Positions 1-25,394 of a stretch of 64,000 nucleotides of DNA are shown in pieces. Origin of the DNA: Candidatus Poribacteria bacterium. GTDB taxonomy: Bacteria > Poribacteria > WGA-4E > WGA-3G. The stretch spans positions 64,001 to 128,000 of the forward strand of contig CAXXUA010000002.1 in the NCBI GenBank assembly GCA_963663765.2. The letters are read 5' to 3'. Made by a program: the position numbers and the translations under genes. A model generated the notes under the pieces. That model made no database searches, was not told the origin of the DNA, and saw nothing but the letters and a program-made list of their open reading frames with translations. Each line of letters begins with the position of its first letter. The first letter of the stretch is position 1.

Positions 1-2
1 AC

Positions 3-572
3 TACGGTGCTACCGGTGACAATCCAGCGGATCTAAATGGCGATGGAGAAGTGAATCTATTGGATCTATTCTTGATTGCTAATGTATTAGATAACATAGA
101 TTCAGCACCAGCAAAGCATACGGTTACAAGTGAAGAACTGACTGCAGCTCAAGTGCAAACGTGGTTGAAACTTGCCAAACAAGATTCGCTACAAACACTG
201 AATGTATCTAAAACTGACGTACTTACTTATCAACGCGGGATTCAAGTGCTGGAACAGATTTTAGTTACGTTAGTACCAAAAGAAACATCGCTTCTTGCTA
301 ACTACCCAAATCCATTCAACCCGGAGACATGGATACCATATCAGTTGGCAGTACCTGCCGATGTCAGCATCTCAATCCATGCTGCAGATGGTAAATTGGT
401 CAGAAAGTTGTCGTTAGGAAACCTTCCTGCAGGCACTTATCAAGATCGTTCCCGTGCTGCGTATTGGGATGGCAAAAACGAGTTTGGCGAGAAGGTTGCA
501 AGTGGTGTGTATTTCTATACACTTACTGCAGGCGATTTTACCGCTACGCGCAAAATGTTGATACTAAAATAG
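3..572 (+). CDS. 3' part of a secreted protein: dockerin-like motif plus FlgD-Ig/T9SS-type-A-like C-terminal domain (5' end outside window)
   Basis: Frame open from the window edge (YGATGDNPADLNGDGEVNLLDL); ends LLANYPNPFNPETWIPYQL...TATRKMLILK. Confidence 0.85.
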   Translation, partial: YGATGDNPADLNGDGEVNLLDLFLIANVLDNIDSAPAKHTVTSEELTAAQVQTWLKLAKQDSLQTLNVSKTDVLTYQRGIQVLEQILVTLVPKETSLLANYPNPFNPETWIPYQLAVPADVSISIHAADGKLVRKLSLGNLPAGTYQDRSRAAYWDGKNEFGEKVASGVYFYTLTAGDFTATRKMLILK

Positions 573-703
573 TATCAAATGACCATAGGATAGCTGGAAT
601 GCTGATGTTTATTAGCTTCGCAACCATCGTTGATGAGTGGGTTAAGTTGGAATCGCTATCATTCTCTTTGAGTAATGATGCGATTAACGGTAAACATTCT
701 TAG

Positions 704-732
704 AGTATAGCAAAACAAGTAGCAGTTGTCAA
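704..732 (-). promoter_or_regulatory. Near-consensus sigma70 promoter pointing out of the DUF1670 unit
   Basis: Minus strand TTGACA (732-727), 17-bp spacer, TATACT (709-704). Confidence 0.6.
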
Positions 733-801
733 TCCTATTTTCAAGGAAACTGCCTCGGTTTTGCTGAATAATGTTCGTCTGGTGGAACAGGAGGTTTAGT
801 A

Positions 802-1686
802 TCATTGTTCTTCTCCTTGGCGTGTTTTTGCATCGTTTGCAGATGAATTGGCAAGGTTTGCATCCATAGCTTGAAGTTGGTGCTGTGGAATAAGGTCAAG
901 ATATTGAGTGATAACGCGTTTAGAAAGTCGTGTAATCTGTGAGATTGTATCAATATCTGCAGTTGCGTTGCGAACGACTTTTATGCTCTCATAGTCGCGA
1001 ATGTATCGGTCAACTGCCTCTTTAGAGTGTTTGGTCTTTGCGGCAATTCTGGGGGTGAGATGTCCTTGAAGATAGAGGGTGATGATCTCTTTCTTGTGGG
1101 TAATAGCACCTGATAAATCATGGATGTTGCCGCGAGTGGGCAAGATGTCGCCAGTGGTTTTTTGCCATTCATTGACATAATCACAGACAACAGCATCGCA
1201 GACGTTCAGCAAGACAGCTAAATCGAGTTGTGTCAATAAGGCACCTTGGTCATAAGCTTGATGACACCAGCGGACTAAGCGATTGATTCGCAGTTGTCGG
1301 GAGGTAAATCCGTTTCGAAAAGATTCAATATCCTCGGTAGCGAGATAGGTCAAGATGATGGGTTTCATCCGAGTTTTGACGATGGACTTCCCTCTTTCTG
1401 GATGTTCATCAATAGGGACGGCCATCCAAACGAGTTGTCCATAACTCAGGAAACGCTCATCTGTGAGTTGATCGCCGGTGGCGAGTTTCTCCAAGGGGAG
1501 GGTAATTACGAAATAGTCCTCAACGGTCTTGAGAATATCATCAACAATGGCAGTGGCAGTGACTTCGCCTTTGTCATACCCGTAGTCATTGAGAAAGCGA
1601 TGGATAAGCAACTGTCGTAGGGACTTATCGTTGATGCGTCTGAATTTTTTTTCGTTGATTTGCGTGCGGGTTAGAGGTTTGCTCAT
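802..1686 (-). CDS. DUF1670-like HTH-containing protein (second of pair)
   Basis: Motif LLTQLDLAVLL...LPTRGNIHDLSGAITHKKEIITLYLQG...TKHSKEAVDRYIRD; ATGA overlap with upstream paralog. Confidence 0.8.
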   Translation of the reverse strand: MSKPLTRTQINEKKFRRINDKSLRQLLIHRFLNDYGYDKGEVTATAIVDDILKTVEDYFVITLPLEKLATGDQLTDERFLSYGQLVWMAVPIDEHPERGKSIVKTRMKPIILTYLATEDIESFRNGFTSRQLRINRLVRWCHQAYDQGALLTQLDLAVLLNVCDAVVCDYVNEWQKTTGDILPTRGNIHDLSGAITHKKEIITLYLQGHLTPRIAAKTKHSKEAVDRYIRDYESIKVVRNATADIDTISQITRLSKRVITQYLDLIPQHQLQAMDANLANSSANDAKTRQGEEQ

Positions 1687-2483
1687 GAGAGGTCCCCCTT
1701 TTTTGTGTCCTCTGGTTCAGGGTGAAGGAGTTGGGTCATGCGATCGGTGTGTTGATATTCCTTGAACAGCGAGAGATACTCGCGTATCAACCGGTCAGAG
1801 AGATGAGAAATCAGGCGTATCTGTGCATTAGGGAAGCCTTGATGATGGAGCGTGGCAACTTGTGTGAAATCTCTCAAGTAGCGGTAGACAGCCCGTTCGC
1901 TGTGGTTTGTTTTTTGCTCGATTTCGGTGAAGGTATAGGCTTTGAAATATAACTCCAAGATCTGTGTCTTATGAGAAGTGCCGGGACCCATGTCGTGTTT
2001 CGTCCCGCGCGTCATAACGAAATATCCTTCCTGCTTCAACTGGCGAATGTCGCGTTTGACTGTAGCAGGACTGGTGGTCAATAGGACCGCTAAATCCTCA
2101 TAGCTCAGTAAGGAATCTTGGTCATAAGCTTCTTTGGTCAATCGGAGGACCCGATGTCGTCTGAGTCCTGCGAGCCCATAAGTTGCTAAGACCTCAAGAT
2201 CAGCGTTTGTGTCATTGAGGGTGAGCCGACAGGAGATTTTTTTCGCTAAAGCGATGTGTTTCCCTGCGGGTTCCTCAGCGGCGACAGCCTCGTAGCAGAT
2301 TTGTCCTGATGTCAGTTTCACATCGGTATGTTGTTCAAAGTAAGTAGAAATCTGTTTATAGTAGGCTTCAGCAACAATAGGCATTAGATTAAAGTCTGCT
2401 GAAATCTTCTGAATAATAGCGGCTCTGGCATTCTTGGATTCGAGCCGGGTAATACCGTAGGCGGTATCCTTTTTGCGGTTCAT
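1683..2483 (-). CDS. DUF1670-like HTH-containing protein (first of pair)
   Basis: Motif LLSYEDLAVLLTTSPATVKRDI...TRGTKHDMGPGTSHKTQILELY...TNHSERAVYRYLRDF; GGAGG RBS before ATG at 2483 (ORF track starts at 2522). Confidence 0.8.
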   Translation of the reverse strand: MNRKKDTAYGITRLESKNARAAIIQKISADFNLMPIVAEAYYKQISTYFEQHTDVKLTSGQICYEAVAAEEPAGKHIALAKKISCRLTLNDTNADLEVLATYGLAGLRRHRVLRLTKEAYDQDSLLSYEDLAVLLTTSPATVKRDIRQLKQEGYFVMTRGTKHDMGPGTSHKTQILELYFKAYTFTEIEQKTNHSERAVYRYLRDFTQVATLHHQGFPNAQIRLISHLSDRLIREYLSLFKEYQHTDRMTQLLHPEPEDTKKGDLS

Positions 2484-2549
2484 GTTGACCTCCATGAATA
2501 GATTAACGGTATCCGAATACATCTACTCGTTAGTATAACTCATACTAAA

Positions 2550-2578
2550 AGTATAACTCATGGGGTCATTTGATACAA
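2550..2578 (-). promoter_or_regulatory. Putative promoter of the DUF1670 pair, overlapping the right inverted repeat
   Basis: Minus strand TTGTAT (2578-2573), 17 bp, TATACT (2555-2550); AGTATAACTCAT directly repeated at 2532 and 2550. Confidence 0.45.
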
Positions 2579-2616
2579 ACTATAAATAGTAAAACCCGAT
2601 GCGCTATTAGGTTGTC

Positions 2617-3159
2617 GTGGTAACGTATCATGTATGCGTTACCACTCATATTGTATATACACAATTGAGAGGAAGAACAATAAATATTGAACTTGAACAA
2701 ATTTCAATTGATGAAAAACCTGTTCTCCGTAATCTGATGCAGTTGTGTTTTCACGATTACAGTGAGTTTAATAACGAGGATGTTGGACCTTATGGACTGT
2801 TCAACTATAAATATCTCGACTACTATTGGACAGAACCTGATCGTTTTGCTTACTTCGTAAAAGTTGAAGGAAAATTGGCAGGTTTTGCTCTCGGCATGCA
2901 TAACCGTTTAGTGGATGGAGAGAACGTAAATATTCTCTCCGAGTTCTTCATTCTCAGAAAATACAGACGAAAGGGGATAGGAATAAAGACTGCCCATAGT
3001 TTATTCAGAAAATATTCCGGTAAATGGTCAATTGTACAAGAAAAATATAATTATCCTGCCCAAACTTTTTGGAGAAAAGTTATTAACGAATATACAAAAG
3101 GCAACTTCACGGAAAGGCAACAAGAGAAAGGACCAATCCAAGAGTTTGAGACACCATAA
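2617..3159 (+). CDS. GNAT family N-acetyltransferase
   Basis: EFFILRKYRRKGIG acetyl-CoA motif, AQTFWRKVI; best RBS precedes an ATA at 2680. Confidence 0.8.
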   Translation: MVTYHVCVTTHIVYTQLRGRTINIELEQISIDEKPVLRNLMQLCFHDYSEFNNEDVGPYGLFNYKYLDYYWTEPDRFAYFVKVEGKLAGFALGMHNRLVDGENVNILSEFFILRKYRRKGIGIKTAHSLFRKYSGKWSIVQEKYNYPAQTFWRKVINEYTKGNFTERQQEKGPIQEFETP

Positions 3160-3285
3160 CAATATCCCTATGCATGCATACTGAATACCGAAACATGGAA
3201 CTTGTAGAAGTAAATTCCATCAATTAACTTGTTCTATGGAGGATAACTGTTGAAACGATTTTTTAGTTAAAATCCGAAATATATT

Positions 3286-4162
3286 TACAGCGTATCTCAT
3301 AAATACTTTATTAGTAGTTGAATACAAGCGAGATGAACAAATCCTAAATAGTTCATAACTTTATGTTCCCACCTCACTACCAACCTCCGAAAATCCTCAA
3401 GCCAACTGAAAAAACGCTCCACTTTGTAGCGACGCTTATACCGGCGTAATCGACGACCATCCTGTGTCACAGCGGACTTACGATTCTTTTTATGCGGGGC
3501 TACCATTTCAATGCCACGACACCTGAGTGTTTTATCTAATGGATCCGAATCATATGCTTTGTCGCCTATCAATACTGCTGGCATTGCCGATACAAAACTC
3601 ACATCTAATATCGGTTCAACCAGACGCACCTCATGCCGTGATGCGCTGGCAACCAAAACACTCACAGGTCTCCCACACTTTTCTGTAATCGCCATCAGTT
3701 TCGTCCCTTTACCACACTTCGTTTTACCGACACACTCTCCCCCTTTTTCGCAGGAACGAACTTGGCATCAATACAACATTCACTCAGATGCAGTTTACGC
3801 TGTTTGTCGAGTCTAACTGCTATCATTTCAAACACACTTTTTAGCGTCCCATCAATACACCATTGCTGGAAACGACGATGACACGTTTGATACGATGGAT
3901 ACTTCTTCGGTAAATCACGCCAAGGTGCTCCCGTCCGCAACATCCAAAGTATCCCGTCTAATACTTCTCTATTATCACGCCAAGGTCTCCCGCGCTTACC
4001 TGAAGGAAGTTCGAGGCAACAAAGGTTCAATGATTTCCCATTCTTTATCACTCAGTTCCATACAAACCATCTCCTAACTCTTACATTTTCTCAAAAGTCT
4101 AACAGAGATGATTACTTATTAAAAGTTTTTTTATAAGTTGACTATTTATGAGATACGCTCTA
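3286..4162 (-). mobile_element. IS5-family (IS427-like, two-ORF) insertion sequence, probably inactive
   Basis: Inverted repeats AGCGTATCTCATAAAT with terminal TA; orfA (GRPWRDNREVLDGILWMLRTGAPWRDLP), orfB (GDKAYDS, YKRRYKVERFFSWL); A5G5 slippery site; extra frameshift after MELSDKEWEIIEPLLP (ATG at 4061). Confidence 0.9.
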
Positions 4163-4666: not shown

Positions 4667-6124
4667 CTACTCATCAATCTGTGCTGTTGTTGCCTTACCG
4701 AAATCGTGTGCAACCTGCACTAAGTCTAAGATGTTTATCTCACCATCACCATTGACATCGGTCGCTGCATTTTCGTCTGATACAGGTTCTCCGAAGTAGG
4801 AAGCGACGCGAACCAAATCCAAGATATTGACGACACCATCACCATTGACATCGGTCGGTAGGTTTTCATCGATGAGTGGCATCAAGTCGGTTATTACCAT
4901 CTCTTGGATCGTGGCAGGTAGCGGTGTATCAAAGGCATCTGAGAGCATCAGCTCCGGTAAAGCGATGATGGCAGGTGTATCCGGGTCGATAACTTCAAAA
5001 GTAAGTGTCACAAGTGTACCATTACCATCTTTTGCAACTGGTAGGTGCGTGTCCGAACCGATCGCAGCAGAACTAAGTATTGAGATACCCCAATATTCTG
5101 CATTCGGACGTGCTAATTCGGGTGGGACTTCAGGAATTTGAAAAAAGAAATCCGATACTGAAAGTTTTTGTTCGCCGAAAGTTACTGTGGTGCCAGTCTG
5201 TGTCGCATCACCGACATCAAGCGAGAGTATATAAGTATCATCTTCATCAAGTATCGGACGGATGAAAATACCACCACTGTGCAGGTAATTCCCTTGTGTT
5301 GCCGAGATATATTTCAACACCTTTGCGTCGAAGGCAACCAAGCCACCATATCCTGCGACATCTTTACCACCATTCAATTGAATACCTATTTTTATATATT
5401 GTGCGTCTTTGGTGGGTTTCTGTTCAATAGAAACCACCATCAAAGGGGTTTCCGTTATCGGTTCTACTAAGTTGTAGCTCTGTAATTCGAACAGAATATC
5501 TTGAGCACTAATAAATTTGACAGGTCCCACGTCAGGTGCTAACCATTGGTATGAAGTCTTGCGTAGGACTGTGGATGCTGTGGCATCCTTTTGGTTTATC
5601 TCCAACTTGACACAGTCCTCAAATACACCCGCTGGGGTTTGTATGTCTTCAATTGCGACAACTTTTATCGTGCTCGTGGTGGTCACTGCACCCACCAGAT
5701 CGAGTTCTGTTTCTGTGAGTATCTGCCAAGTGTGTCCGAGTGGTAAATCGGCTGGAAAGAAAGTGACCGGTGGTACGTAAGTCGCTTCTGCAATGCCGAA
5801 AGGACCTTGATCTGTTGTGCTCTGATGTAATAAAAGACTGCCATCATTTTCAACGGTGATACTGTATATGTCCGTGCTGGTTGTTATACCTGTTCCGATC
5901 CCCTCATTCGTTACCTTTAGCACGATAAGCCCTTCAACATCCGTATCCTCTGACGCTTGAAGTGTATAGGTGAGTTGTTGACCACCGTCGTCACTCACAA
6001 ACACCCACGTATTACCGATTTCAGATGGATAATAGTTTGTAGCGGTCGCTGTGACTGTAAAACAGAAAATCAGGCATAATACTAAAAGTGCCTTCTGACA
6101 AGACACAATACTGGTAAACTTCAT
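4667..6124 (-). CDS. Secreted protein: N-terminal beta domain, cohesin-like domain, C-terminal dockerin
   Basis: Signal peptide; YYPSEIGNTW...TPAGVFEDCVK; DVAGY..VAFDAKVLKY...GNGTLVTLTFEV; two DVNGDG.(V/I)NILDLV repeats. Confidence 0.75.
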   Translation of the reverse strand: MKFTSIVSCQKALLVLCLIFCFTVTATATNYYPSEIGNTWVFVSDDGGQQLTYTLQASEDTDVEGLIVLKVTNEGIGTGITTSTDIYSITVENDGSLLLHQSTTDQGPFGIAEATYVPPVTFFPADLPLGHTWQILTETELDLVGAVTTTSTIKVVAIEDIQTPAGVFEDCVKLEINQKDATASTVLRKTSYQWLAPDVGPVKFISAQDILFELQSYNLVEPITETPLMVVSIEQKPTKDAQYIKIGIQLNGGKDVAGYGGLVAFDAKVLKYISATQGNYLHSGGIFIRPILDEDDTYILSLDVGDATQTGTTVTFGEQKLSVSDFFFQIPEVPPELARPNAEYWGISILSSAAIGSDTHLPVAKDGNGTLVTLTFEVIDPDTPAIIALPELMLSDAFDTPLPATIQEMVITDLMPLIDENLPTDVNGDGVVNILDLVRVASYFGEPVSDENAATDVNGDGEINILDLVQVAHDFGKATTAQIDE

Positions 6125-9929: not shown

Positions 9930-10509
9930 GGTATGGACTGCGAAAACTCGGTATCTCGCGTAAAAAAAGACACTCGGCTATAAGGAACGATGTGATCAAA
10001 AGCGAAAAACCTATCGTGAACAACTCGCAGCTGAAGAACAAAGCGGAAAATCATTAGTTTTTATTGATGAAAGCGGGTTCCGCTCAGAAAGTTTTAGGCG
10101 TTTCGGTTATGCGCCAAAAGGCGAACCGGTTTTTGACCTTATATCAAGCCAAAGAACTCGCACAACAACTGTATTAGCAGCCCGTATAGATAATGTGTTT
10201 ACAACACCGACTCTCTTTGAAGGGAGTTGTAATGCGGAGTGTTTCAATGCGTGGCTTGAATGTCAGTTATGTCCGCGTTTGGGAGAAAACCATCTCGTCA
10301 TATTGGATAATGCACGTATACATAGAACGCTACGCACGCAAGAATTCATAGAAGCAACGGGAGCATCCTTATTGTATTTACCACCTTATTCACCAGACTA
10401 TAATCCATTGAACACGACTTTGCAATCATAAAACGATTACAAGAATATAATAAAGATAAAACACTTGAAGAGAACATAAATATGTATAATTAATCAAAAC
10501 TCTACTATA
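9930..10509 (+). pseudogene. Second IS630-family transposase remnant (5' truncated, frameshifted)
   Basis: KKKTLGYKER, FIDESGF, LDNARIH, YLPPYSPDYNP; ends in CTATA. Confidence 0.8.
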
Positions 10510-10817
10510 AATGACCATGGGGTTATTATCTTGTGTCTTTTTCACGAGTAAAGAGTAGATGTGCACTAAAGTCTATCCGGTACAACAGCAAGAAGTCATT
10601 TCGCATTGAAATTGAATTATTGTATGTTGACAAATTTCTATTCATAAAAGAAGAATGAATCGTATGAAAAAGATGGCATTTTTTCTGTTAACCTTACTTG
10701 ATCTTTTAATTATCAGCTTACAAACAGCGTATTGTGCTTACGAAGATCGCTTAGGGTTGTATGCATAATTATCACAGACGATTGCACTTTGTAATCAAAC
10801 AAAAAAAGGAGTATATT

Positions 10818-13800
10818 ATGGATTTGTTAAGAAAAAAACCAAATACAATCGTGTCAATGCTTTTTGTCATCTTTTTGATTTTTTGCGGACAAAGTAACAG
10901 TTTCAGTCAGGACCAAAATAATGTACCTGAGATTACCCCAGTTTGTGATAGAACCTCACAGGTACGGGATGCAATTGTTGCTATAGTACCGGGGATAGAT
11001 GAATGTAAGGATATTACATCTACGCATTTGTCTGTGATTTCCAGCCTCAATCTGAGTAACTTGACAATTACGGCTCTCAAGGAAGGTGATTTTGATGGTC
11101 TATCCGCGTTAACATCGCTTTCTATAGGGAATAACCAGTTAACCAGCTTACCAACGACAATCTTTTCAGGTTTATCTTCATTGACAAGGCTTGACTTAGG
11201 TAGTAACAAGTTAAGCAGTCTACATGAGGATATCTTTTCCGGACTGACTTTGCTGAATAGAGTCTATTTATCGTATAACAACTTGAGTAGTCTACCAGAT
11301 GATATTTTTTCTGGACTGTCTTCATTGCAATCGCTTGCGTTAAGTAACAATAATCTCAGTAGTCTACCTGCGGGTCTATTTTCTGGGCTGTCTTCCTTGG
11401 ATTGGTTATCACTAGCTTCCAACAGTTTAAGTGAGTTACCCGATGGTATTTTTTCGGGGTTGTCTTCCCTACGTTCTCTCTCTTTGACTGAAAACTCAGT
11501 TAATTTATCTATTACTGTTTCATTGAAAAAAGTTGGTGATAGTCAATTTAAGGCAATTGCCCCCATCGGAGCACCCTTCAATATCGTTTTGCCGTTGACT
11601 CTTTTGAATGGGAGCATTGGCGACGATACAACTACTGTTACGATTCCCACTGGTAGTGTTGAAAGTGGTTTATTCAATGTTACTCGCACACCCAGCACTA
11701 TAGATCCTATCACTATAGAAATTGGAACTTTGCCGACCTTACCCTCAGGTCATTTCGGTTATCGCCTCGTCGAACCGACATCTACGGAAGAAAACAGTAA
11801 TATACTTAGTTTTGTTGTTACTATTCCCAACGATTACGAATCTACTGATAACAATCCTCCTGTTTTCACCGAGGGTGAAAGGACCACACGCAATATAGCC
11901 GAAAACACACCCACAGGTAAAAACATTGGAGATCCAGTCTTAGCAACAGATGTGGATTCCTATCTGTTGACTTACATTCTCGGTGGTACAGATGCAGCAT
12001 CATTTAGTATTGAGAGTGGTACGGGTCAGTTGAAGACGCGTTCAGCCCTCGACTATGAAACGAAGAATACTTATGCTGTTTCGGTCACAGTTTCAGATGG
12101 AAACCTCACAGATATCATCAGTGTTACCATCAAGGTCACAGATGTGTTTGAAAACAGTGCGCCTGTTTTCGCTGAGGGTGCAACTACCGAACGTTCAATA
12201 GCCGAAAACACACCCGCTGGCAGAAACATCGGAGGTCCTGTGGTTGCAACTGACCCGGATGAAGAGGACACCTTGACTTACATTCTCGGTGGCACAGACG
12301 CAGCAGCATTTAGTATTGAGAGTGGTACGGGTCAGTTGAAGACGCGTTCAGCCCTCGACTATGAAACGAAGAATACTTATGCTGTTTCGGTCACAGTTTC
12401 AGATGGAAACCTCACAGATATCATCAGTGTTACCATCAAGGTCACAGATGTGTTTGAAAACAGTGCGCCTGTTTTCGCTGAGGGTGAAACTACCGAACGT
12501 TCAATAGCCGAAAACACACCCGCTGGCAGAAACATCGGAGGTCCTGTGGTTGCAACTGACCCGGATGAAGAGGACACCTTGACTTACAGTCTTGGTGGCA
12601 CAGACGCAGCAGCATTTAGTATTGAGAGTGGTACGGGTCAGTTGAAGACGCGTTCAGCCCTCGACTTTGAAACGAAGAATACTTATGCTGTTTCGGTCAC
12701 AGTTTCAGATGGAAACCTCACAGATATCATCAGCGTTGCCATCAAGGTCACAGATGTGTTTGAAAACAGTGCGCCTGTTTTCGCTGAGGGTGCAACTACC
12801 GAACGTTCAATAGCCGAAAACACACCCGCTGGCAGAAACATCGGAGGTCCTGTGGTTGCGACTGACCCGGATGAAGAGGACACCTTGACTTACATTCTCG
12901 GTGGCACAGACGCAGCAGCATTTAGTATTGAGAGTGGTACGGGTCAGTTGAAGACGCGTTCAGCCCTCGACTTTGAAACGAAGAATACTTATGCTGTTTC
13001 GGTCACAGTTTCAGATGGAAACCTCACAGATATCATCAGCGTTGCCATCAAGGTCACAGATGTGTTTGAAAACAGTGCGCCTGTTTTCGCTGAGGGTGCA
13101 ACTACCGAACGTTCAATAGCCGAAAACACACCCGCTGGTAGAAACATCGGAGGTCCTGTGGTTGCGACTGACCCGGATGAAGAGGACACCTTGACTTACA
13201 TTCTCGGTGGCACAGATGCAGCAACATTTAGTATTGAGAGTGCTACGGGTCAGTTGAAGACGCGTTCAGCCCTTGACTACGAGACAAAGAATACTTATGC
13301 TGTGTCTGTCTCAGTCTCAGACGGTAATGGTGGATTTGACATCATCAGTGTTGCCATCAAAGTCACAGATGTGTTTGAAAATAACGCACCTGTTTTCGTT
13401 GAGGGTGAAACTACCGAACGTTCAATAGCCGAAAACACACCCGCTGGTAGAAACATCGGAGGTCCTGTGGTTGCGACTGACCCGGATGAAGAGGACACCT
13501 TGACTTACATTCTCGGTGGCACAGATGCAGCAACATTTAGTATTGAGAGTGCTACGGGTCAGTTGAAGACGCGTTCAGCCCTTGACTACGAGACAAAGAA
13601 TACTTATGCTGTGTCTGTCTCAGTCTCAGACGGTAATGGTGGATTTGACATCATCAGTGTTGCCATCAAGGTCACAGATGTGTTTGAAAATAACGCACCT
13701 ATTTTCGTTGAGGGTGCAACTACCGAACGTTCAATAGCCGAAAACACACCCGCTGGTAGAAACATCGGAGGTCCTGTGGTTGCGACTGACCCTGATGAAG

Positions 13801-16800
13801 AGGACACCTTGACTTACATTCTCGGTGGCACAGATGCAGCAACATTTAGTATTGAGAGTGCTACGGGTCAGTTGAAGACGCGTTCAGCCCTTGACTACGA
13901 GACAAAGAATACTTATGCTGTGTCTGTCTCAGTCTCAGACGGTAATGGTGGATTTGACATCATCAGTGTTGCCATCAAGGTCACAGATGTGTTTGAAAAT
14001 AACGCACCTGTTTTCGTTGAGGGTGAAACTACCGAACGTTCAATAGCCGAAAACACACCCGCTGGTAGAAACATCGGAGGTCCTGTGGTTGCGACTGACC
14101 CGGATGAAGAGGACACCTTGACTTACATTCTCGGTGGCACAGATGCAGCAACATTTAGTATTGAGAGTGCTACGGGTCAGTTGAAGACGCGTTCAGCCCT
14201 TGACTACGAGACAAAGAATACTTATGCTGTGTCTGTCTCAGTCTCAGACGGTAATGGTGGAATTGACATCATCAGTGTTGCCATCAAGGTCACAGATGTG
14301 TTTGAGAATAACGCGCCTGTTTTCGTTGAGGGTGAAACTACCGAACGTTCAATAGCCGAAAACACACCCGCTGGCAGAAACATTGGAAGTCCTGTGGTAG
14401 CGACTGACCCGGATGAAGAGGATACCTTGACCTATACACTTGGTGGAGTAGATGCGGTCTCCTTCAGCATTGAGAGTGCTACGGGTCAGTTGAAGACGCG
14501 TGCATTCCTTGACTTTGAAGCAAAGAATACACATTTGGTAGCGGTTACCGTCTCCGATGGTAATGGTGGTACAGACATCATCAGTGTTGTCATCAATGTC
14601 AAGGATTTAGATGAAACACCAACGCTTCACCCACCGGTTTTCGTTGAAGGTGATAGTACCGAACGTTCAATAGCCGAAAACACACCTGCCGGCAGAAACA
14701 TTGGAAGTCCTGTGGTTGCGACTGACCCGGATGAAGAGGACACTTTGACTTACAGTCTCGGTGGCACAGATGCAGCAACATTTAGTATTGAGAGTGCTAC
14801 GGGTCAGCTGAAGACGCGTTCAGCCCTCGACTATGAAACGAAGAATGCTTATGCTGTGTCGGTCACAGTTTCAGATGGAAACCTCACAGATATCATCAGC
14901 GTTGCCATCAAGGTTATAGATGTGTTTGAAAATAACCCGCCCGTTTTCGTTGAAGGTGATAGTACCGAACGTTCAATAGCTGAAAACACACCTGCAGGCA
15001 GAAACATCGGAAGTCCTGTGGTAGCGACTGACCCTGATGAAGAGGACACCTTGACTTACAGTCTCGGTGGCACTGATGCAGCAACATTTAGTATTGAGAG
15101 TGCTACGGGTCAGCTGAAGACGCGTTCAGCCCTCGACTTTGAAACGAAGAATGCTTATGTTGTGTTTGTCTCTGTCTCAGACGGAAATGGTGGAATTGAC
15201 ATCATCAGTGTTGCCATCAAGGTCACAGATGTATTTGAAAATAACCCGCCCGTTTTCGTTGAAGGTGATAGTACCGAACGTTCAATAGCTGAAAACACAC
15301 CTGCAGGCAGAAACATCGGAAGTCCTGTGGTTGCGACTGACCCTGATGAAGAGGACACCTTGACTTACAGTCTCGGTGGCACTGATGCAGCAACATTTAG
15401 TATTAAGAGTGGTACGGGTCAGCTGAAGACGCGTTCAGCCCTCGACTATGAAACGAAGAATGCTTATGTTGTGTTTGTCTCTGTCTCAGACGGTAATGGT
15501 GGATTTGACATCATCAGTGTTGCCATCAAAGTCACAGATGTGTTTGAAAATAACGCACCTGTTTTCGTTGAAGGTGATAGTACCGAACGTTCAATAGCTG
15601 AAAACACACCTGCAGGCAGAAACATCGGAAGTCCTGTGGTTGCGACTGACCCTGATGAAGAGGACACCTTGACTTACAGTCTCGGTGGCACAGATGCAGC
15701 AACATTTAGTATTGAGAGTGCTACGGGTCAGTTGAAGACGCGTTCAACACTTGATTATGAAACGAAGAATGCTTATGTTGTGTTTGTCTCTGTCTCAGAC
15801 GGTAATGGTGGAATTGACATCATCAGTATTGCCATCAAGGTCACAGATGTATTTGAAAATAACCCGCCTGTATTCGTTGAAGGTGATAGTACCGAACGTT
15901 CAATAGTTGAAAACACACCTGCCGGCAGAAACATCGGAGGTCCTGTGGTAGCGACTGACCCTGATGAAGAGGACACCTTGACTTACAGTCTCGGTGGCAC
16001 AGATGCAGCAACATTTAGTATTGAGAGTGCTACGGGTCAGTTAAAAACGCGTTCACTACTTGATTATGAAACGAAGAATGCTTATGTTGTGTTTGTCTCT
16101 GTCTCAGACGGTAATGGTGGAATTGACATCATCAGTGTTGCCATCAAGGTCACAGATGTATTTGAAAATAACCCGCCCGTTTTCGTTGAAGGTGAAACCG
16201 CTACACGAGAAATAGCTGAAAACACACCTGCAGGCAGAAACATCGGAGGTCCTGTGGTTGCGACTGACCCTGATGAAGAGGACACCTTGACTTACAGTCT
16301 CGGTGGTACAGACGCAGCAACATTTAGTATTGAGAGTGCTACGGGTCAGTTGAAGACGCGTTCAATCCTCGACTTTGAAACGAAGAATGCTTATGCGGTG
16401 TCTGTCTCTGTCTCAGACGGTAATGGTGGGATTGACATCATCAGTGTTGCCATCAAGGTCACAGATGTATTTGAAAATAGTCCGCCCGTTTTCGTTGAAG
16501 GTGAAACCGCTACACGAGAAATAGCTGAAAACACACCTGCAGGCAGAAACATCGGAGGTCCTGTGGTTGCGACTGACCCGGATGAAGAGGACACCTTGAC
16601 TTACATTCTCGGTGGCACAGATGCAGCAACATTTAGTATTGAGAGTGGTACGGGTCAGTTGAAGACGCGTTCAGCCCTCGACTTTGAGACGAAGAATGCT
16701 TATGCAGTGTCTGTCTCTGTCTCAGACGGTAATGGTGGGATTGACATCATCAGTGTTGCCATCAAGGTCACAGATGTATTTGAAAATAGTCCGCCCGTTT

Positions 16801-18983
16801 TCGTTGAAGGTGAAACCGCTACACGAGAAATAGCTGAAAACACACCTGCAGGCAGAAACATCGGAGGTCCTGTGGTTGCGACTGACCCGGATGAAGAGGA
16901 CACCTTGACTTACATTCTCAGTGGCACAGATGCAGCAACATTTAGTATTGAGGGTGGTACGGGTCAGTTGAAGACGCGTTCAGCCCTCGACTTTGAGACG
17001 AAGAATGCTTATGTTGTGTCTGTCTCTGTCTCAGACGGTAATGGTGGAATTGACATCATCAGTGTTGCCATCAAGGTCACAGATGTATTTGAAAATAACC
17101 CGCCAGTTTTCGCTGCGGGTGAAACCACGACACGTTCTATACTTGAAAACACACCTATAGGCAGAAACATAGGAGATCCTGTAACTGCGACTGACCCTGA
17201 TGAAGAGGACACTTTGATTTACAGTCTCGGTGGCACAGATGCGATCTCCTTTAGCATTGAGAATGCGACCGGTCAGTTGAAAACACATGCAGTGCTTGAT
17301 TATGAAACAAAGAATTCATATACAGTAACAGTAAATGTCTCTGATGGCAGCCAAACTGTTTCTATCGTTGTCATCATCATTGTTATTGACGTAGACGAGG
17401 GTAATGCACCTGTTTTTGCTGGTAATCGCACGACGCGTTCAGTGCAGGAAAACACACCATCTGGTGTAAACGTCGGGAGTCCAGTGGCTGCTACGGATGC
17501 TGATAGCGACACCTTGATTTACAGTCTGGACGGCACAGATGCATCCTCGTTCAGCATTGTCAGCACCTCCGGTCAGTTGAAGACGCTCGCACCATTGGAT
17601 TTTGAAACAAAAAATTCATATACAGTAACTGTAACTGTATCAGATGGTAGTCGTACTGCTGCCATTACCGTAGATATCACTATCATTGACGTAGACGAAT
17701 CTCCACCTGAATTGGTAAAGAGTAGGGTCAGTATTAGTGAAATCATGTATGGATCGGAAAGACACTTTACTCCAACCCAATGGATAGAATTAAATAATGC
17801 TGGTCCGGACATCATCAATCTGGCAGGATGGAAACTGACATTTCAGAATGTCGACTCACAAGACTTGACCGGACCGGTAAATGGAACAATCACCTTCAAG
17901 GATGACTTCTGGGGTGATGCGCCGAGAATTTGGCCAAATGAAGTTCTTATGGTAGTAGGAACAGGGAATACAAACTCAGGTAACCTTCTTGATGATCAGA
18001 TTTACGACCTTGTCTGGAGAACATCGTTATCTCTCGGTTTTTGGACTACATGGTTAAGTGCAGAAGGCTTCCGCATAAGACTGTATGATGATGATGGGAA
18101 CCTGGTGGACGAGGCTGGAAACCTTGATGGAAGCATTCTACGATGGGACTTACCTTATGGTCAAAACAGGGGCAAAATCAGAGCGGGGAATCGGACCTCG
18201 TTGATCCGTCGCTATGCCAATAGTATGCCGCTTGATGGAACCCAAGCAAATGGCTGGATCTCAGCTGTGGACGCGAATTTATCAGCGGATCAAATAACCT
18301 ATTATGGGCCTTCGGATGATATCAGCACACCTGGAACCGGGATCGTCATTAACGACATCTCCCCACAGTACATAGTGTATGATATTAACCAGGACGGCGT
18401 GGTAGATATCGTAGATTTAGTAATTGTTGCAGGACGTATCGGACAATCCGGTCCCAACGCTGCAGATGTTAACGGTGATGGCGTTGTTAACATACAAGAC
18501 CTGATACTTGTGGCGAGTGCACTCGGTCAAACACCCGCAGCACCGTCATTTCAACCCGCGTCATTCGCAATGCTCACAGCAGCCGATATTCAAGGGTGGC
18601 TGACTGCAGCACAAGGTTTAAACCTAACGGATACGAAGGTACAAAGCGGTATCCGTTTTTTAGAGCAACTGCTTGTAGTGTTGACTCCGAAAAAGACCGA
18701 ACTGCTCTCTAATTTCCCTAATCCGTTTAACCCTGAAACGTGGATACCATATCGATTGGCAGAAGATGCTTTTGTCAAACTCACCATCTACGACCAGCGC
18801 GGGGTTGTCATCCGCAAAATCAATGTTGGACACAAAACCGCCGCAGTCTACGAAAGAAAGTCAAATGCTATCTATTGGGATGGCAGAAATGAGGTTGGCG
18901 ACAGGGTTGCGAGTGGAATTTTCTTCTACACCCTAACTGCAGGCAATTATACTGCAACACGAAAAATGCTTATTCTCAAGTAA
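10818..18983 (+). CDS. Giant secreted adhesin-like protein: LRRs, 19 cadherin repeats, lamin-tail-like domain, dockerin, FlgD-Ig/T9SS-like CTD
   Basis: AGGAG RBS before ATG 10818; LxxLxLxxNxLxxLP repeats; PVF..ENTP..ATDPD..LDYE repeats; VSISEIMY..QWIEL; DVNGDGVVNIQDL; FPNPFNPETWIPY. Confidence 0.9.
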   Translation: MDLLRKKPNTIVSMLFVIFLIFCGQSNSFSQDQNNVPEITPVCDRTSQVRDAIVAIVPGIDECKDITSTHLSVISSLNLSNLTITALKEGDFDGLSALTSLSIGNNQLTSLPTTIFSGLSSLTRLDLGSNKLSSLHEDIFSGLTLLNRVYLSYNNLSSLPDDIFSGLSSLQSLALSNNNLSSLPAGLFSGLSSLDWLSLASNSLSELPDGIFSGLSSLRSLSLTENSVNLSITVSLKKVGDSQFKAIAPIGAPFNIVLPLTLLNGSIGDDTTTVTIPTGSVESGLFNVTRTPSTIDPITIEIGTLPTLPSGHFGYRLVEPTSTEENSNILSFVVTIPNDYESTDNNPPVFTEGERTTRNIAENTPTGKNIGDPVLATDVDSYLLTYILGGTDAASFSIESGTGQLKTRSALDYETKNTYAVSVTVSDGNLTDIISVTIKVTDVFENSAPVFAEGATTERSIAENTPAGRNIGGPVVATDPDEEDTLTYILGGTDAAAFSIESGTGQLKTRSALDYETKNTYAVSVTVSDGNLTDIISVTIKVTDVFENSAPVFAEGETTERSIAENTPAGRNIGGPVVATDPDEEDTLTYSLGGTDAAAFSIESGTGQLKTRSALDFETKNTYAVSVTVSDGNLTDIISVAIKVTDVFENSAPVFAEGATTERSIAENTPAGRNIGGPVVATDPDEEDTLTYILGGTDAAAFSIESGTGQLKTRSALDFETKNTYAVSVTVSDGNLTDIISVAIKVTDVFENSAPVFAEGATTERSIAENTPAGRNIGGPVVATDPDEEDTLTYILGGTDAATFSIESATGQLKTRSALDYETKNTYAVSVSVSDGNGGFDIISVAIKVTDVFENNAPVFVEGETTERSIAENTPAGRNIGGPVVATDPDEEDTLTYILGGTDAATFSIESATGQLKTRSALDYETKNTYAVSVSVSDGNGGFDIISVAIKVTDVFENNAPIFVEGATTERSIAENTPAGRNIGGPVVATDPDEEDTLTYILGGTDAATFSIESATGQLKTRSALDYETKNTYAVSVSVSDGNGGFDIISVAIKVTDVFENNAPVFVEGETTERSIAENTPAGRNIGGPVVATDPDEEDTLTYILGGTDAATFSIESATGQLKTRSALDYETKNTYAVSVSVSDGNGGIDIISVAIKVTDVFENNAPVFVEGETTERSIAENTPAGRNIGSPVVATDPDEEDTLTYTLGGVDAVSFSIESATGQLKTRAFLDFEAKNTHLVAVTVSDGNGGTDIISVVINVKDLDETPTLHPPVFVEGDSTERSIAENTPAGRNIGSPVVATDPDEEDTLTYSLGGTDAATFSIESATGQLKTRSALDYETKNAYAVSVTVSDGNLTDIISVAIKVIDVFENNPPVFVEGDSTERSIAENTPAGRNIGSPVVATDPDEEDTLTYSLGGTDAATFSIESATGQLKTRSALDFETKNAYVVFVSVSDGNGGIDIISVAIKVTDVFENNPPVFVEGDSTERSIAENTPAGRNIGSPVVATDPDEEDTLTYSLGGTDAATFSIKSGTGQLKTRSALDYETKNAYVVFVSVSDGNGGFDIISVAIKVTDVFENNAPVFVEGDSTERSIAENTPAGRNIGSPVVATDPDEEDTLTYSLGGTDAATFSIESATGQLKTRSTLDYETKNAYVVFVSVSDGNGGIDIISIAIKVTDVFENNPPVFVEGDSTERSIVENTPAGRNIGGPVVATDPDEEDTLTYSLGGTDAATFSIESATGQLKTRSLLDYETKNAYVVFVSVSDGNGGIDIISVAIKVTDVFENNPPVFVEGETATREIAENTPAGRNIGGPVVATDPDEEDTLTYSLGGTDAATFSIESATGQLKTRSILDFETKNAYAVSVSVSDGNGGIDIISVAIKVTDVFENSPPVFVEGETATREIAENTPAGRNIGGPVVATDPDEEDTLTYILGGTDAATFSIESGTGQLKTRSALDFETKNAYAVSVSVSDGNGGIDIISVAIKVTDVFENSPPVFVEGETATREIAENTPAGRNIGGPVVATDPDEEDTLTYILSGTDAATFSIEGGTGQLKTRSALDFETKNAYVVSVSVSDGNGGIDIISVAIKVTDVFENNPPVFAAGETTTRSILENTPIGRNIGDPVTATDPDEEDTLIYSLGGTDAISFSIENATGQLKTHAVLDYETKNSYTVTVNVSDGSQTVSIVVIIIVIDVDEGNAPVFAGNRTTRSVQENTPSGVNVGSPVAATDADSDTLIYSLDGTDASSFSIVSTSGQLKTLAPLDFETKNSYTVTVTVSDGSRTAAITVDITIIDVDESPPELVKSRVSISEIMYGSERHFTPTQWIELNNAGPDIINLAGWKLTFQNVDSQDLTGPVNGTITFKDDFWGDAPRIWPNEVLMVVGTGNTNSGNLLDDQIYDLVWRTSLSLGFWTTWLSAEGFRIRLYDDDGNLVDEAGNLDGSILRWDLPYGQNRGKIRAGNRTSLIRRYANSMPLDGTQANGWISAVDANLSADQITYYGPSDDISTPGTGIVINDISPQYIVYDINQDGVVDIVDLVIVAGRIGQSGPNAADVNGDGVVNIQDLILVASALGQTPAAPSFQPASFAMLTAADIQGWLTAAQGLNLTDTKVQSGIRFLEQLLVVLTPKKTELLSNFPNPFNPETWIPYRLAEDAFVKLTIYDQRGVVIRKINVGHKTAAVYERKSNAIYWDGRNEVGDRVASGIFFYTLTAGNYTATRKMLILK
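11850..17700 (+). repeat. Tandem array of mostly 306-309 bp near-identical cadherin-coding units
   Basis: Periodic antisense ORFs at 306/309-bp spacing; near-identical DNA between neighbouring units. Confidence 0.95.
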
Positions 18984-19032
18984 CACAAACAGGGAGACAA
19001 GTTTTCTTGAAAAACTCGGTTTCTCTATAATT

Positions 19033-22500: not shown

Positions 22501-25394
22501 TCCCTGTTGCTGGTGGACAGGAAACGCTAATCGCATCAACAGCAGCACCACTGACTGAGGTAACACTGAATGGGAGTGTCGTCACACTCACAATAAACGG
22601 TGCAATCTTCAAACGATCCAGAATTGACATCGGTAATGCTATAACGGTTTCTGGAGTAAATGGTGTCACTTTCCACTGGTTTGATATAGACCGAGTCAGC
22701 GATACTAATTTGACAGTTGAACTCTCATTTAATGGCAACATTGATGAAGATGCCACGTTGACCTTTACTGTTGGTGCGGATGCTATAGCTGGATATGATG
22801 GTGATGCCCTCATCACACAACTACCGGTTACCGCGCTGCAGGAATCAGTCTCTGCTACAACTGAGTCGTCCTTGGCAGAGGCAACATTGGATGGAAGCAT
22901 CGTCACACTCACGCTCAGCGGATGTACTTTTGAACGATCACTCTTCAACATCAGAAATGGGGTGACAGTTTCTGGTGTTGATGGAGTTAAGATCTATAGT
23001 TTTGGGATTGACCGTGTCAGCGATACGCAGATAAATGTTGAGCTTGAATTCAACGGAGATTTTGATACAGATGCTACATTAACATTTACCGTAGGTGTGA
23101 ATGCGATTTTACGGTATAACGGTGATCCCTTGACTGCACAACTCACTGTAACTGGGGGGCAGGAAACGGTAATCGCATCAACAGCAGCACCACTGACTGA
23201 GGTAACACTGAATGGGAGTGTCGTCACACTCACGCTCAGTGGTGCTAAATACACCCGCAATACCTTTGATCTTAGAGACGGTGTCTCCGTTTCTGGTATT
23301 GAGGGTGTAATAATTCCGTGGCACGACCCAAGGAAAAAAAGTGATACTGAAATTACAATTGAATTGGAATTTGATGGGACAGACTTTGATACAACTTCCA
23401 CGCTGACTTTTACTGTTGAATCAGATGCCTTTGCAGGTTACAACGGTCCTGCTCTCACGACACAGATATCTGTTTCCGAAGTGGTAGAATCATTGCTTGC
23501 CTCAAGCGCATCACCGTTGACAGAAGCGACATTAGATGAAAGTGTCGTTACCCTGACCCTCATCGGCAGGAATTATACCCGGACTATTTATGACATTAGA
23601 GATGCTGTGTCAGTCTCAGGTATTTCTGGTGTAACATTCCCGTGGAATGAACCGGTTAAAAAGAGTGATACTGAAATCACGATGAAACTGGAGTTTGATG
23701 GGGATATGACAAGTGATGGCACACTGACCTTTACTGTTGGATCGGATGCTATCGCTGGTTATAATGGTTCGGTACTGACTGCACAAGTGTCTGTCTCTGC
23801 CACAAGTACAACAACACCATCAAACCGTGCGCCAGTATTTACTGAAGGTAGCAGCACCACGCGCTCAGTAGCAGAGAACACGGCGTCGGGTGTAAATATC
23901 GGCAGTGTGGTTGCTGCCACAGATGCGGATACCGGTGATACGCTCACGTATAGTCTGGGTGGCACAAATGCATCAGCGTTCAGCATTGTCAGCAATTCGG
24001 GGCAGCTGCAAACTAAAGCTGCACTTGACTACGAAACGATGACATCCTACTCTGTCATCATCTCTGTTACGGATGGTCGTGGCGGGAGTGATAGCATCAC
24101 CGTGGCAATCAACATCACTGATGTAAACGAAGCTATTCCAAACCGTGCGCCAATATTTACCGAAGGTAGCAGCACCACGCGCTCAGTAGCAGAGAACACC
24201 GCATCGGGTGTAAATATCGGCAGTGCGGTTGCTGCCACAGATGCGGATAGGAATACGCTTACGTATAGTCTGGGTGGCACAAATGCATCAGCGTTCAGCA
24301 TTGTCAGCAATTCGGGGCAGCTGCAAACTAAAGCTGCACTTGACTACGAAACGATGACATCCTACTCCGTCATCGTCTCTGTTACGGATGGAAATGGCGG
24401 GAGTGATAGCATTATAGTCACAATTAATATCACTGATGTGTCTGAGACACCTACAAATGGCAGACCATCCATCAGTGTTTCTGCGGATACGACATTAACA
24501 GAGGCAACACTTGATGGTACAGTGGTTACCCTCACGCTAACAAGTGGCACTTATGAAAGCGCATTCTGGAATTATCAAAAGGTATCTGTCTCTGGGATCA
24601 CAGGTGTGACTTTTAATGACTTTTTTGATGTTGAGCGCGCGAGTAGCACAGAACTCACCGTCGAACTGACATTTGATGGGAACATGACCACTGATGGCAC
24701 GCTGACCTTTACCGTTGAATCGGATGCGATTGTGGATTTTGATGATTCGGCACTGACTGCGCAAATATCAGTCTCCGCCGTCAGTGAGTCTGTCACTGCT
24801 TCGCCCGCTACATTGACCGAGGCGTCCCTTGATGGTGCAAAGGTTACCCTCACGCTCAGCGGACAGATATTTGAGCGATCTATTCATTACATTAGAGATG
24901 CTGTGTCAGTCTCAGGTATATCCGGTGTAACATTCCCTTGGCATGACCCGGATAAAAAGAGTGATACCGAAATCACGATGGAACTGGAGTTTGATGGGGA
25001 TATGACAAGTGATGGCACACTGACCTTTATGGTTGGAGCGGATGCTATCGCGGGCTATAATGGTTCGGCACTGACTGCACAAGTGTCTGTCACAGCAAGC
25101 CAAGAGAACGCTCTCGGGGCAAACTTCCCAAACCCATTCAATCCAGAAACGTGGATACCGTATCAGTTATCCAAAGCATCTAATGTTAGCTTGACGATCT
25201 ACAATATGCGTGGGGTTGTCGTTCGGGAATCGAAGTTAGGGCAGAAAGCAGCGGGTGTGTATCAAAGCCGTAGTCGTGCTATCCATTGGGATGGTAGAAA
25301 CGAAATCGGTGAGAAGGTCGCGAGCGGCTTGTATTTCTACACACTTACAGCGGGTGATTTTACCGCAACGCGCAAGATGTTGATAAGGAAATAG
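19515..25394 (+). CDS. Large secreted protein: zincin metallopeptidase domain, 4 cadherin repeats, 10 copies of a ~105-aa beta-rich repeat, FlgD-Ig/T9SS-like CTD
   Basis: Signal peptide from ATG 19515; HEIAHGLGF, SHLDE-like THLDE, LMTP; LTEATLDGSVVTLTL repeats; FPNPFNPETWIPY...TRKMLIRK. Confidence 0.85.
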   Translation: MNFLRKLFSITLIACSLLGMTSHAMCLDKKIEQLSGPSNAQTTMLTPVSQDDTEHLTILYGTQENMNTSVPPPQILRRYNSENNLNTEQSQFIVTYIGFTDEAQEAFQYAVDIWDSLIRTQVPIRINASFIDFGGFENNNIILGGARPADWKSPGSLNLWFVDALSDMQAGKDLSDGAPDIITKFNSNQEVNWYFGIDGNTPSGKMDFVSTVIHEIAHGLGFSSFARIENSSNDIFSLSVAQGTLRGKSPKFPQIYDFFVENGSGTALISFFDPSSGLVEQFTSNNIYWNGKIGVKANGGILPHLYAPSIWEQGSSYTHLDEDSFPAGDENSLMTPYFGRQEAIHNPGSITLGMLEDMGWSINKAPVFVDGTNTTRTLVENAGSDVNIGRPIFAMDDNNDNLTYQLSGTDAALFVIDSTTGQVKTNIGQEYNRTSYTVTVIVSDGRLITEIIVIIQVSTTTVVTPNNNPPIFTDGSHTTRTVVENTTSGVDIGDPITATDADNHYLTYTLSGVDAALFEINDATGQLKTKVALDYETNRTYTVTLTVSDGSLTDTITVTINVTDKDVETTPTLTLISHPLMETTLNGSLVTLKLNHSVYENWLINPVTVSGIPGVTVKTSNVVRAADTELRLQLTFDGTDFDTNATLTFTVKTDAIENYSDSPLKATILVTAAQESVNASTITPPTETTLNGTVVTLTLSGAVYESKYTVGNNVSVSGITGVSVNRLNVVRISGTQVNVALKFDGTDFDSNAMLTITVGADAIASYNGTELVAQLPVIAVVEENPSIIAFVSESLTETTLNESLVTLTLSSDVYMQSSSVINRSIQVSGIAGVTVRQSDVARVSDTKVTVKITYDGTNFDTDSKLIFTVTADAIENYTGPALISVIPVTAVIESKPTVTVVTSQPLTEANLNENVILLTLNNGTYVQSLFDIEDSLTVSGISGVTLNRYGVRRVSDTDISVELEFDGNFDSNAILTFSVGADAIVGYEGADLIIQLPVAGGQETLIASTAAPLTEVTLNGSVVTLTINGAIFKRSRIDIGNAITVSGVNGVTFHWFDIDRVSDTNLTVELSFNGNIDEDATLTFTVGADAIAGYDGDALITQLPVTALQESVSATTESSLAEATLDGSIVTLTLSGCTFERSLFNIRNGVTVSGVDGVKIYSFGIDRVSDTQINVELEFNGDFDTDATLTFTVGVNAILRYNGDPLTAQLTVTGGQETVIASTAAPLTEVTLNGSVVTLTLSGAKYTRNTFDLRDGVSVSGIEGVIIPWHDPRKKSDTEITIELEFDGTDFDTTSTLTFTVESDAFAGYNGPALTTQISVSEVVESLLASSASPLTEATLDESVVTLTLIGRNYTRTIYDIRDAVSVSGISGVTFPWNEPVKKSDTEITMKLEFDGDMTSDGTLTFTVGSDAIAGYNGSVLTAQVSVSATSTTTPSNRAPVFTEGSSTTRSVAENTASGVNIGSVVAATDADTGDTLTYSLGGTNASAFSIVSNSGQLQTKAALDYETMTSYSVIISVTDGRGGSDSITVAINITDVNEAIPNRAPIFTEGSSTTRSVAENTASGVNIGSAVAATDADRNTLTYSLGGTNASAFSIVSNSGQLQTKAALDYETMTSYSVIVSVTDGNGGSDSIIVTINITDVSETPTNGRPSISVSADTTLTEATLDGTVVTLTLTSGTYESAFWNYQKVSVSGITGVTFNDFFDVERASSTELTVELTFDGNMTTDGTLTFTVESDAIVDFDDSALTAQISVSAVSESVTASPATLTEASLDGAKVTLTLSGQIFERSIHYIRDAVSVSGISGVTFPWHDPDKKSDTEITMELEFDGDMTSDGTLTFMVGADAIAGYNGSALTAQVSVTASQENALGANFPNPFNPETWIPYQLSKASNVSLTIYNMRGVVVRESKLGQKAAGVYQSRSRAIHWDGRNEIGEKVASGLYFYTLTAGDFTATRKMLIRK

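Follow-up and report, generated by a model that had tools for sequence, protein, structure and literature searches.

A two-gene DUF1670 element with the anatomy of an insertion sequence in the last codon of a sorting-domain gene of Candidatus Poribacteria

The transposon Tn7, directed by TnsD to attTn7, recognizes the conserved 3' end of a gene and inserts there in one direction, sparing the gene. IS1397 and ISKpn1 are IS3-family insertion sequences that target repetitive extragenic palindromic (REP) sequences and carry a DDE transposase. Site- and orientation-specific insertion into repeats, together with a long non-coding end that holds a promoter, is described for IS110 and IS1111 in a preprint (bioRxiv 10.1101/2024.04.26.591405). 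The locus described here lies in a stretch of 64,000 nucleotides, the window, from Candidatus Poribacteria bacterium (GenBank assembly GCA_963663765.2, contig CAXXUA010000002.1, positions 64,001 to 128,000 of the forward strand), in a genome of 6.35 Mb and 15 contigs. It is an element bounded by terminal inverted repeats whose two genes, A and B, encode paralogous proteins of the DUF1670 family. Like Tn7, the DUF1670 element uses the 3' coding end of a gene, inserts in one orientation and does not inactivate the gene. Tn7, however, lands downstream of glmS and uses five proteins including a DDE transposase, whereas the DUF1670 element inserts inside the last codon, rebuilds that codon and the stop, has two helix-turn-helix (HTH) proteins only and uses a multi-copy target family. 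A sister lineage of the element, in the genomes labelled G035 and G026, enters a REP-like palindrome at its loop, as IS1397 and ISKpn1 do, but no DDE transposase like theirs was recognized in the DUF1670 element. The features of the element in the window are the following.

569–2583, minus strand (the strand of both genes): the whole element; homology starts and stops here in 5 copies of the same genome and 11 copies of relatives
567–568, no strand: left AA, the duplicated target dinucleotide; AA ends 49 of 49 distinct left flanks
569–584, plus strand: left terminal inverted repeat ATAGTATCAAATGACC, whose ATAG gives the Lys third base and the stop of the host gene
802–1686, minus strand: gene B, a DUF1670 paralogue of 294 aa, whose ATG overlaps the stop of A (ATGA, 4 nt)
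1683–2483, minus strand: gene A, DUF1670, 266 aa; the open reading frame (ORF) is open from 2522 (279 aa) and homologues start at M14
2532–2561, plus strand: a pair of 12-nt direct repeats, AGTATAACTCAT, spaced 18 nt apart, which precede gene A and lie just within the right end
2564–2583, plus strand: right terminal inverted repeat GGTCATTTGATACAAACTAT, equal to the left repeat inverted plus 4 nt (TTTG/CAAA)
2584–2585, no strand: right AA, the duplicated target dinucleotide; 2584–2589, AAATAG, is the displaced original Lys-stop

The limits of the element were set by comparing the five copies of the same genome with 60 or more copies of other genomes. The two 13-nt arms, GTATCAAATGACC at 572–584 and its exact reverse complement at 2564–2576, are 100% complementary and lie 1979 nt apart. 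By our estimate the chance of a perfect 13-nt inverted repeat within about 2.6 kb is near 0.05, which is only mildly unlikely taken alone; since every copy examined, whether from this genome or another, keeps the 13-mer at its ends, it is not a product of chance. When the junctions of all copies were lined up, similarity continued past the 13-mers by 3 nt on the left (ATAG/TATC...) and by 7 nt on the right (...GATACAAACTAT), so that the element spans 569–2583 and measures 2015 bp. The same ends bound the 11 copies in seven related genomes, including a lineage with only 76% DNA identity, and copies among 58 loci in public metagenome-assembled genomes (MAGs), those of Candidatus Poribacteria being joined by close variants from Calditrichota and others; the end-to-end length of the other copies is 1895–2028 bp. 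The terminal inverted repeats kept among copies of this and other genomes read ATAG[TTTG]TATCAAATGACC at both ends, the right one being ATAG-TTTG-TATCAAATGACC when inverted, and are imperfect, 16 nt long on the left and 20 nt on the right. The 13-mer occurs 15 times exactly in the genome, and 14 of these occurrences are element ends or end remnants. An earlier note on this DNA, made from the letters alone, had offered as its second choice that the 13-mers belong to the element as its terminal repeats, which the copies show to be right. The insertion-sequence anatomy of the DUF1670 element is thus very probable, and the unit can be called a genuine insertion sequence; the reading of 569–2583 as an intact, autonomous insertion sequence specific for site and orientation is somewhat favoured.

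The mobility that the earlier note had proposed is borne out by the occurrence of multiple copies, the patchy distribution and an AA duplication relative to empty sites. A BLAST search with window positions 1–3300 revealed near-full copies elsewhere in the genome at C13:125645 (94% identical), C13:129749 (88%) and C3:608696 (94%), a truncated copy at C3:571655–573179, a right-end fragment at C3:614941–615309, a left-end fragment at C4:1123228 and a derivative of about 370 bp with an internal deletion at C4:1054083–1054452 (contig and position). These copies are 88–97% identical to that of the window and several are broken, while the window copy is intact; the DUF1670 profile PF07900 gave 11 matches at five loci of the genome. 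PF07900 was also found in 11 of 41 related genomes, with 0–4 pairs each, and within the genus in 6 of 24 genomes, the window's own left out of the count. The 58 loci in public MAGs (Poribacteria, Calditrichota and others) include genomes with 5 to 10 or more copies, and G035 holds four identical copies of 1999 bp in differing flanks. Contigs of about 2.0 kb carry many of the database homologues of A and B, a pattern typical of collapsed repeats. Four sponge-associated metagenome runs were used as contigs only, a form in which rare variants may be missed; contigs break at the element ends, and the depth summed over contigs is many times greater within the element than in the flanks. Deletion derivatives were present with joints 596>2511, 586>2563 (run X8) and 782>2243, and loose ends at 2585–2589 run into other AAGTAA or AAATAA sites. 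Left-end stubs of 13–168 nt stand at several host-type gene ends (C6:448429, C13:591423, C3:402292 and C4:1123228), and the stub deletions seem to spare the bases that now serve as the stop of the host gene. In the window itself a 20-nt left-end stub, ATAGTATCAAATGACCATAG, lies at 25391–25410 directly after a sorting-domain gene and is followed by unrelated sequence. A search of the plasmid collection gave no match. A 265-bp inverted repeat at C15:18060–18324 was considered and dropped, since it looks like coding sequence. Six metatranscriptome runs (X15–X20) hold 7–10% of the sampled words of window 1–3300.

The genes that flank the window copy are listed below.

3–572, plus strand: 3' part of the host target gene, with Pfam dockerin and FlgD_ig / Por_Secre_tail sorting domain matches, ending ...TATRKMLILK and stop
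2617–3159: right-flank gene, a GNAT acetyltransferase (Pfam)

The insertion point lies inside the final Lys codon of genes for type-IX-secretion C-terminal domains, whose ends read, for example, ...CGNAARATGNTNATNNNNAARTAR.... Approximately 44 of the 49 distinct left flanks encode a ...TRKMLILK-stop end, the last strand of the C-terminal sorting domain. Among 55 distinct right flanks, position 1 is A in 54 and position 2 in 52, and 48 start with the displaced Lys-stop hexamer AA[AG]T[AG][AG] (AAGTAA 18, AAATAG 11, AAGTAG 9, AAATAA 7, AAGTGA 3); all 11 copies of relatives are flanked by AA on both sides. The left junction is constantly AA/ATAG, even where AAGTAA or AAATAA stands on the right. 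As the left copy reads AAATAG whatever the right codon, the G is element-borne, and both the last base of the Lys codon and a TAG stop come from the element. The stop of the host gene at 570–572 of the window is accordingly element DNA, and the first bases of the element, ATAG, restore the codon and stop, leaving the host gene undamaged. For the copies of the same genome, excising the element and one AA gives an in-frame ...AAR TAR gene end, with the exception of C13:129749, the most diverged copy, whose right flank is AT. The orientation is fixed, with the host gene always meeting the left end and genes A and B converging on the host gene.

Empty sites were available for the sister lineage in G035, which has the four identical copies, and G026. 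The REP hairpin that it enters, AACCGAGTTTT-GAAGAAAAAA-CTCGGTT, is present in 70 uninterrupted copies in G035 and 35 in G026. These empty sites, which are paralogous and not orthologous, mostly have six A (GTTTTGAAG-AAAAAA-CTCGG), and filled sites read GAAGAA/element/AAAAAACTCGG, a gain of two A over the empty form, which confirms the 2-bp duplication. A TA duplication and a model with no duplication were excluded by the REP empty sites; a 6-bp overlap was rejected on the same sites and on the left junction, which is always of element type. In the window's genome, the right flank of the fragment at C3:614941 (AATAGcagtcaacataagg..., continuing ...AATAGcagtcaacataaggag...) matches five uninterrupted paralogous gene ends, ...aaaTAGcagtcaacataagg. 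The REP-like palindromes of G035 and G026, GAAACCGAGTTTT-loop-AAAACTCGGTTTC, often form tandem arrays at intervals of about 160–350 bp (for example at loci L044–L049); a sequence like them lies near window position 18990, and a related hairpin follows a gene end at C2:82960.

The host gene belongs to a family with about 50 paralogous 3' ends in the genome, 65–85% identical in DNA. Other members with dockerin and FlgD_ig / Por_Secre_tail domains lie at 4667–6124 and about 25100–25393 of the window and end in ...RKMLILK and stop. To the right of the GNAT gene, 3297–4051 on the minus strand holds an IS4/IS5-type transposase split in two ORFs (DUF4096, then DDE_Tnp_1), with about eight related copies in the genome. 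A link between this IS5 and the DUF1670 element was rejected, as not one of 69 other DUF1670 loci has it.

The earlier note had described A and B as two ATGA-overlapping DUF1670 paralogues and the only genes between a perfect 13-bp inverted repeat. Sequence and Pfam confirm the description, and an ORF scan gave no further frame of comparable size between the 13-nt arms. Both proteins match PF07900 strongly (A, E 4.5e-61, 207.7 bits; B, E 1.9e-61, 206.5 bits; curated cut-off 25 bits). Gene A also matches HTH_11, and both proteins have weak extra HTH matches (HTH_23/28/29). The two are 34% identical over 200 residues (E 1e-26), and homologues of A are 264–270 aa long. Gene A precedes gene B at 47 of 54 loci; the exceptions include contig ends, and another is likely to be caused by an interrupted copy. 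Two copies on OZ244587.1, L077 and L081, have end-to-end lengths of 4000 and 3138 bp, and a further insertion has probably interrupted them; in L077 gene B does not directly follow A. The family comprises 1222 cluster representatives at E ≤ 0.001 and 601 at ≤ 1e-10, and among the control genomes a DUF1670 match was also found in Methanosarcina acetivorans. Relatives of greater length consist of two or three fused DUF1670 units and carry no further domain. In an alignment of 74 sequences R159 (numbered as in A) is invariant and 17 columns are at least 90% conserved, among them G60, G74, D95, R114, Q122, D130, T141, G160, G166, H171, H194, Y202, F206 and Y236, so that the motifs which the earlier note saw shared by A and B (R159, G160, H171, H194 and Y202 among their residues) are a signature of the family.

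An AlphaFold2 model of A was obtained with a predicted local distance difference test (pLDDT) score of 90.7. The conserved loop at about 160–170 (TRG...SHK) has lower confidence in this model and lies between a winged HTH and two further HTH units. The best matches to structures in PDB and BFVD had TM-scores below 0.2 and were regulators or arrays of the HTH type, a sequence search of PDB returned only HTH regulators or nothing, and the best ESM Atlas score, 0.80, was to HTH_23 clusters. The predicted A-B complex had a score of 0.21 and a mark of 0.32, from which no inference was drawn.

Upstream of A the only promoter-like features are −10-like TATACT boxes, one on the gene strand of each AGTATAACTCAT repeat, and these repeats are inferred to be a putative operator or −10 element. 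The opposite end of the element contains a predicted promoter that points outward.

704–732, minus strand: predicted outward promoter of the sigma-70 type downstream of B, TTGACA-17 nt-TATACT with a TG preceding the −10, directed across the left end
569–698, minus strand: predicted transcript tail of about 130 nt, two hairpins followed by the single-stranded left repeat

The promoter matches the consensus at 11 of 12 positions and is the best site in 400–2800. Across 25 aligned poribacterial copies, 6 of the 12 hexamer positions are invariant, 4 more are at least 90% conserved and 2 vary.

In the mechanism that we consider most likely, A and B would act jointly as recombination machinery, reading the element ends and a degenerate target of about 25 bp and making cuts staggered by 2 bp at AA. 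The invariant TRG...D...SHK loop, with the conserved His and Tyr, would provide candidate active or metal-binding residues. When the ends are joined, in a circle or in tandem, the outward promoter would read across CTAT-AA-ATAG (...CAAACTAT-AA-ATAGTATC...) into A and B, so that the boost to their expression would be limited to the transposition intermediate. This proposed joined-end promoter may have a parallel in the junction promoters that copy-out/paste-in insertion sequences possess. The earlier note had predicted a circle junction AACT-CAT-AGGATAGC; the element limits give CTAT-AA-ATAG in its place. Whether DUF1670 is the catalyst is evenly balanced. The wider proposal is more tentative: DUF1670 pairs may be DNA transposases or site-specific recombinases of a new class, found widely among bacteria and archaea, made of HTH arrays and the invariant TRG...D...SHK loop without a DDE, HUH, serine or tyrosine fold, which read a site of about 25 bp and insert with base precision at a stop-proximal codon, possibly helped by an element-encoded RNA across the left end.

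Several described enzyme systems resemble this element in part. IS630 and Tc1-mariner elements are likewise small, duplicate a constant 2-bp target dinucleotide, and have short terminal inverted repeats and multi-HTH modules; the DUF1670 element differs in using AA and not TA, in its two paralogous genes, in its long fixed-orientation target and in having no DDE/RNase-H-like domain by Pfam or fold. Compared with IS110 and IS1111, the DUF1670 element has no DEDD transposase (no DEDD_Tnp match), has a 2-bp duplication and terminal repeats, and shows no guide complementarity. For the serine recombinases (IS607, integrases), the shared 2-bp core would fit a crossover with a 2-nt stagger and a long helix precedes the DNA-binding modules, but no Resolvase family was matched, the N-terminus consists of three helices and a beta hairpin, and no conserved Ser nucleophile motif was identified. 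A tyrosine recombinase, for which an overlap of 6–8 bp would be expected, is not indicated, as there was no Phage_integrase-type match and no mixed overlap in any of the 49 left flanks. The HUH elements (IS200/IS605, IS91) differ in that no Y1_Tnp or Rep family was found and that inverted repeats and a duplication are present.

A number of results weigh against an autonomous element moved by its own two proteins. Pfam returned only DUF1670 and HTH families, with none of the DDE, DEDD, HUH, resolvase or integrase families at E ≤ 0.01 in either protein, NCBIfam and PHROGs gave nothing useful, and Foldseek found no PDB match at E ≤ 0.001 and a sole BFVD match with a TM-score of 0.16; the earlier note's remark that no DDE, HUH or serine-recombinase motif is visible thus extends to known transposase domains in Pfam and fold searches. 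The model of A consists of three helices, a beta hairpin, a 30-residue helix and then three (winged) HTH modules, and the confident part of the predicted fold is an array of HTH modules. The HS..AV.RY..D motif, which the earlier note had named with the TRG loop as a candidate for catalysis, sits in a predicted HTH recognition helix and looks DNA-binding rather than catalytic in the model. The promoter and RNA are computational predictions only. Being 88–97% identical to the window copy and in several cases broken, the copies do not demonstrate recent activity in the window's genome. Neither a circle back-joint nor an empty-site joint 568>2584 was present among the 15 joints listed of 22 in the contigs of the four metagenome runs. 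An orthologous empty site for the window copy was not found at nine loci of genus genomes, where the orthologues of the right-flank GNAT gene are 80–82% identical and the left neighbours are unrelated, precluding comparison.

A first alternative is a non-autonomous element, in which A and B would only bind DNA (ends, target choice, autoregulation) and the cutting and joining would be carried out by a host recombinase or by the transposase of another insertion sequence. This is unlikely but the strongest of the alternatives. In its favour, the whole fold is HTH with no nuclease or recombinase fold, and the persistence of deletion derivatives that lack intact genes, with the high summed metagenome depth, suggests that the ends suffice in trans. 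Against this, the A-B pair is the sole conserved content across Poribacteria, Calditrichota, a Gemmatimonadota record and the Methanosarcina control; the 13-mer end sequence is confined in its own genome to the element family and one lone site; the adjacent IS5 is not linked; and a 2-bp AA duplication with ATAG...CTAT ends does not fit the conventions of IS3 or IS5.

A second alternative is RNA-assisted recombination, in which the transcript of the outward promoter, running through the left repeat into the flank, would pair the ends and the target, loosely like the bridge or seeker RNAs of IS110 and IS1111. We consider it improbable. It would agree with the strong promoter, most of whose hexamer positions are near-invariant in all 25 aligned poribacterial copies, and with insertion that is highly site- and orientation-specific. 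Starting near 698, the predicted transcript would continue into the host gene in antisense, and its tail folds with a minimum free energy of −28.9 kcal/mol (z −3.1) into the two hairpins. Helices named by hand are 79% paired across the alignment, compared with 35–50% when slid as controls. Covariation, however, is weak, with four pairs showing double changes; RNAalifold gave no structure on the raw 218-column alignment, and Rfam had no match at E ≤ 1 for 300–2900. No guide-like match of the tail to flank or target was found beyond chance-level words of 8–10 nt, the variable segment of the tail does not track the flank sequence among copies when compared by eye, one element sequence adjoins differing codon choices, and the promoter motif was not seen in the tails of elements of 62% identity.

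It is very improbable that the unit is not mobile but a two-gene regulator operon of secreted-protein genes, duplicated along with them. The same kind of gene is always adjacent in the same orientation, as that explanation would have it, but the host gene ends are 65–85% identical against 88–97% for the elements, an element or remnant is present at just about 10 of some 50 paralogous gene ends, the identical copies of G035 lie in unrelated flanks, and the empty and filled REP-loop sites of another lineage, with their 2-bp duplication, contradict it.

The least credible explanation, and the one first put forward in the earlier note, is insertion into a host hairpin GTATCAAATGACC-ATGG-GGTCATTTGATAC split at a CAT junction: the 13-mers pair perfectly with each other and 10509 holds a partial look-alike, but homology among copies runs through the 13-mers and ends 3 nt outside them on the left and 7 nt on the right, an intact hairpin GTATCAAATGACC...GGTCATTTGATAC is absent from the 6.35 Mb, and the real empty sites (paralogous Lys-stop ends and REP loops) contain no 13-mer. 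The arithmetic of that note is literally true, in that removing the insert with one CAT yields a palindrome, but the inner sequence belongs to the element in every copy. Its look-alike, AAATGACCATGGGGTTATT at 10509–10527, does exist; it is single and has no target-type gene end next to it. It resembles the inner halves of both terminal repeats joined, and is intergenic, upstream of an ORF of 2740 aa (10761–18983). Barring three weak matches, it is unique in the genome at up to three mismatches, and it may be due to chance or derive from two ends once joined, as in the 586>2563 joint, and since decayed.

Known prokaryotic transposable elements use a handful of enzyme chemistries. The DUF1670 element has textbook insertion-sequence anatomy and occurs in hundreds to thousands of sequence clusters, yet has no recognizable enzyme of those classes. 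Either a new catalytic solution exists in an HTH scaffold or there is a general way to borrow one, and either would be new to the field; a search of the accessible literature found no paper containing 'DUF1670' or 'PF07900'. Base-exact, orientation-fixed insertion into the last codon, with the codon base and stop brought by the element, is a safe-haven strategy. If the two proteins prove sufficient, they would make a compact site-specific DNA insertion system. Databases label such units only as 'DUF1670 domain-containing protein', and DUF1670 units should be annotated as mobile elements.

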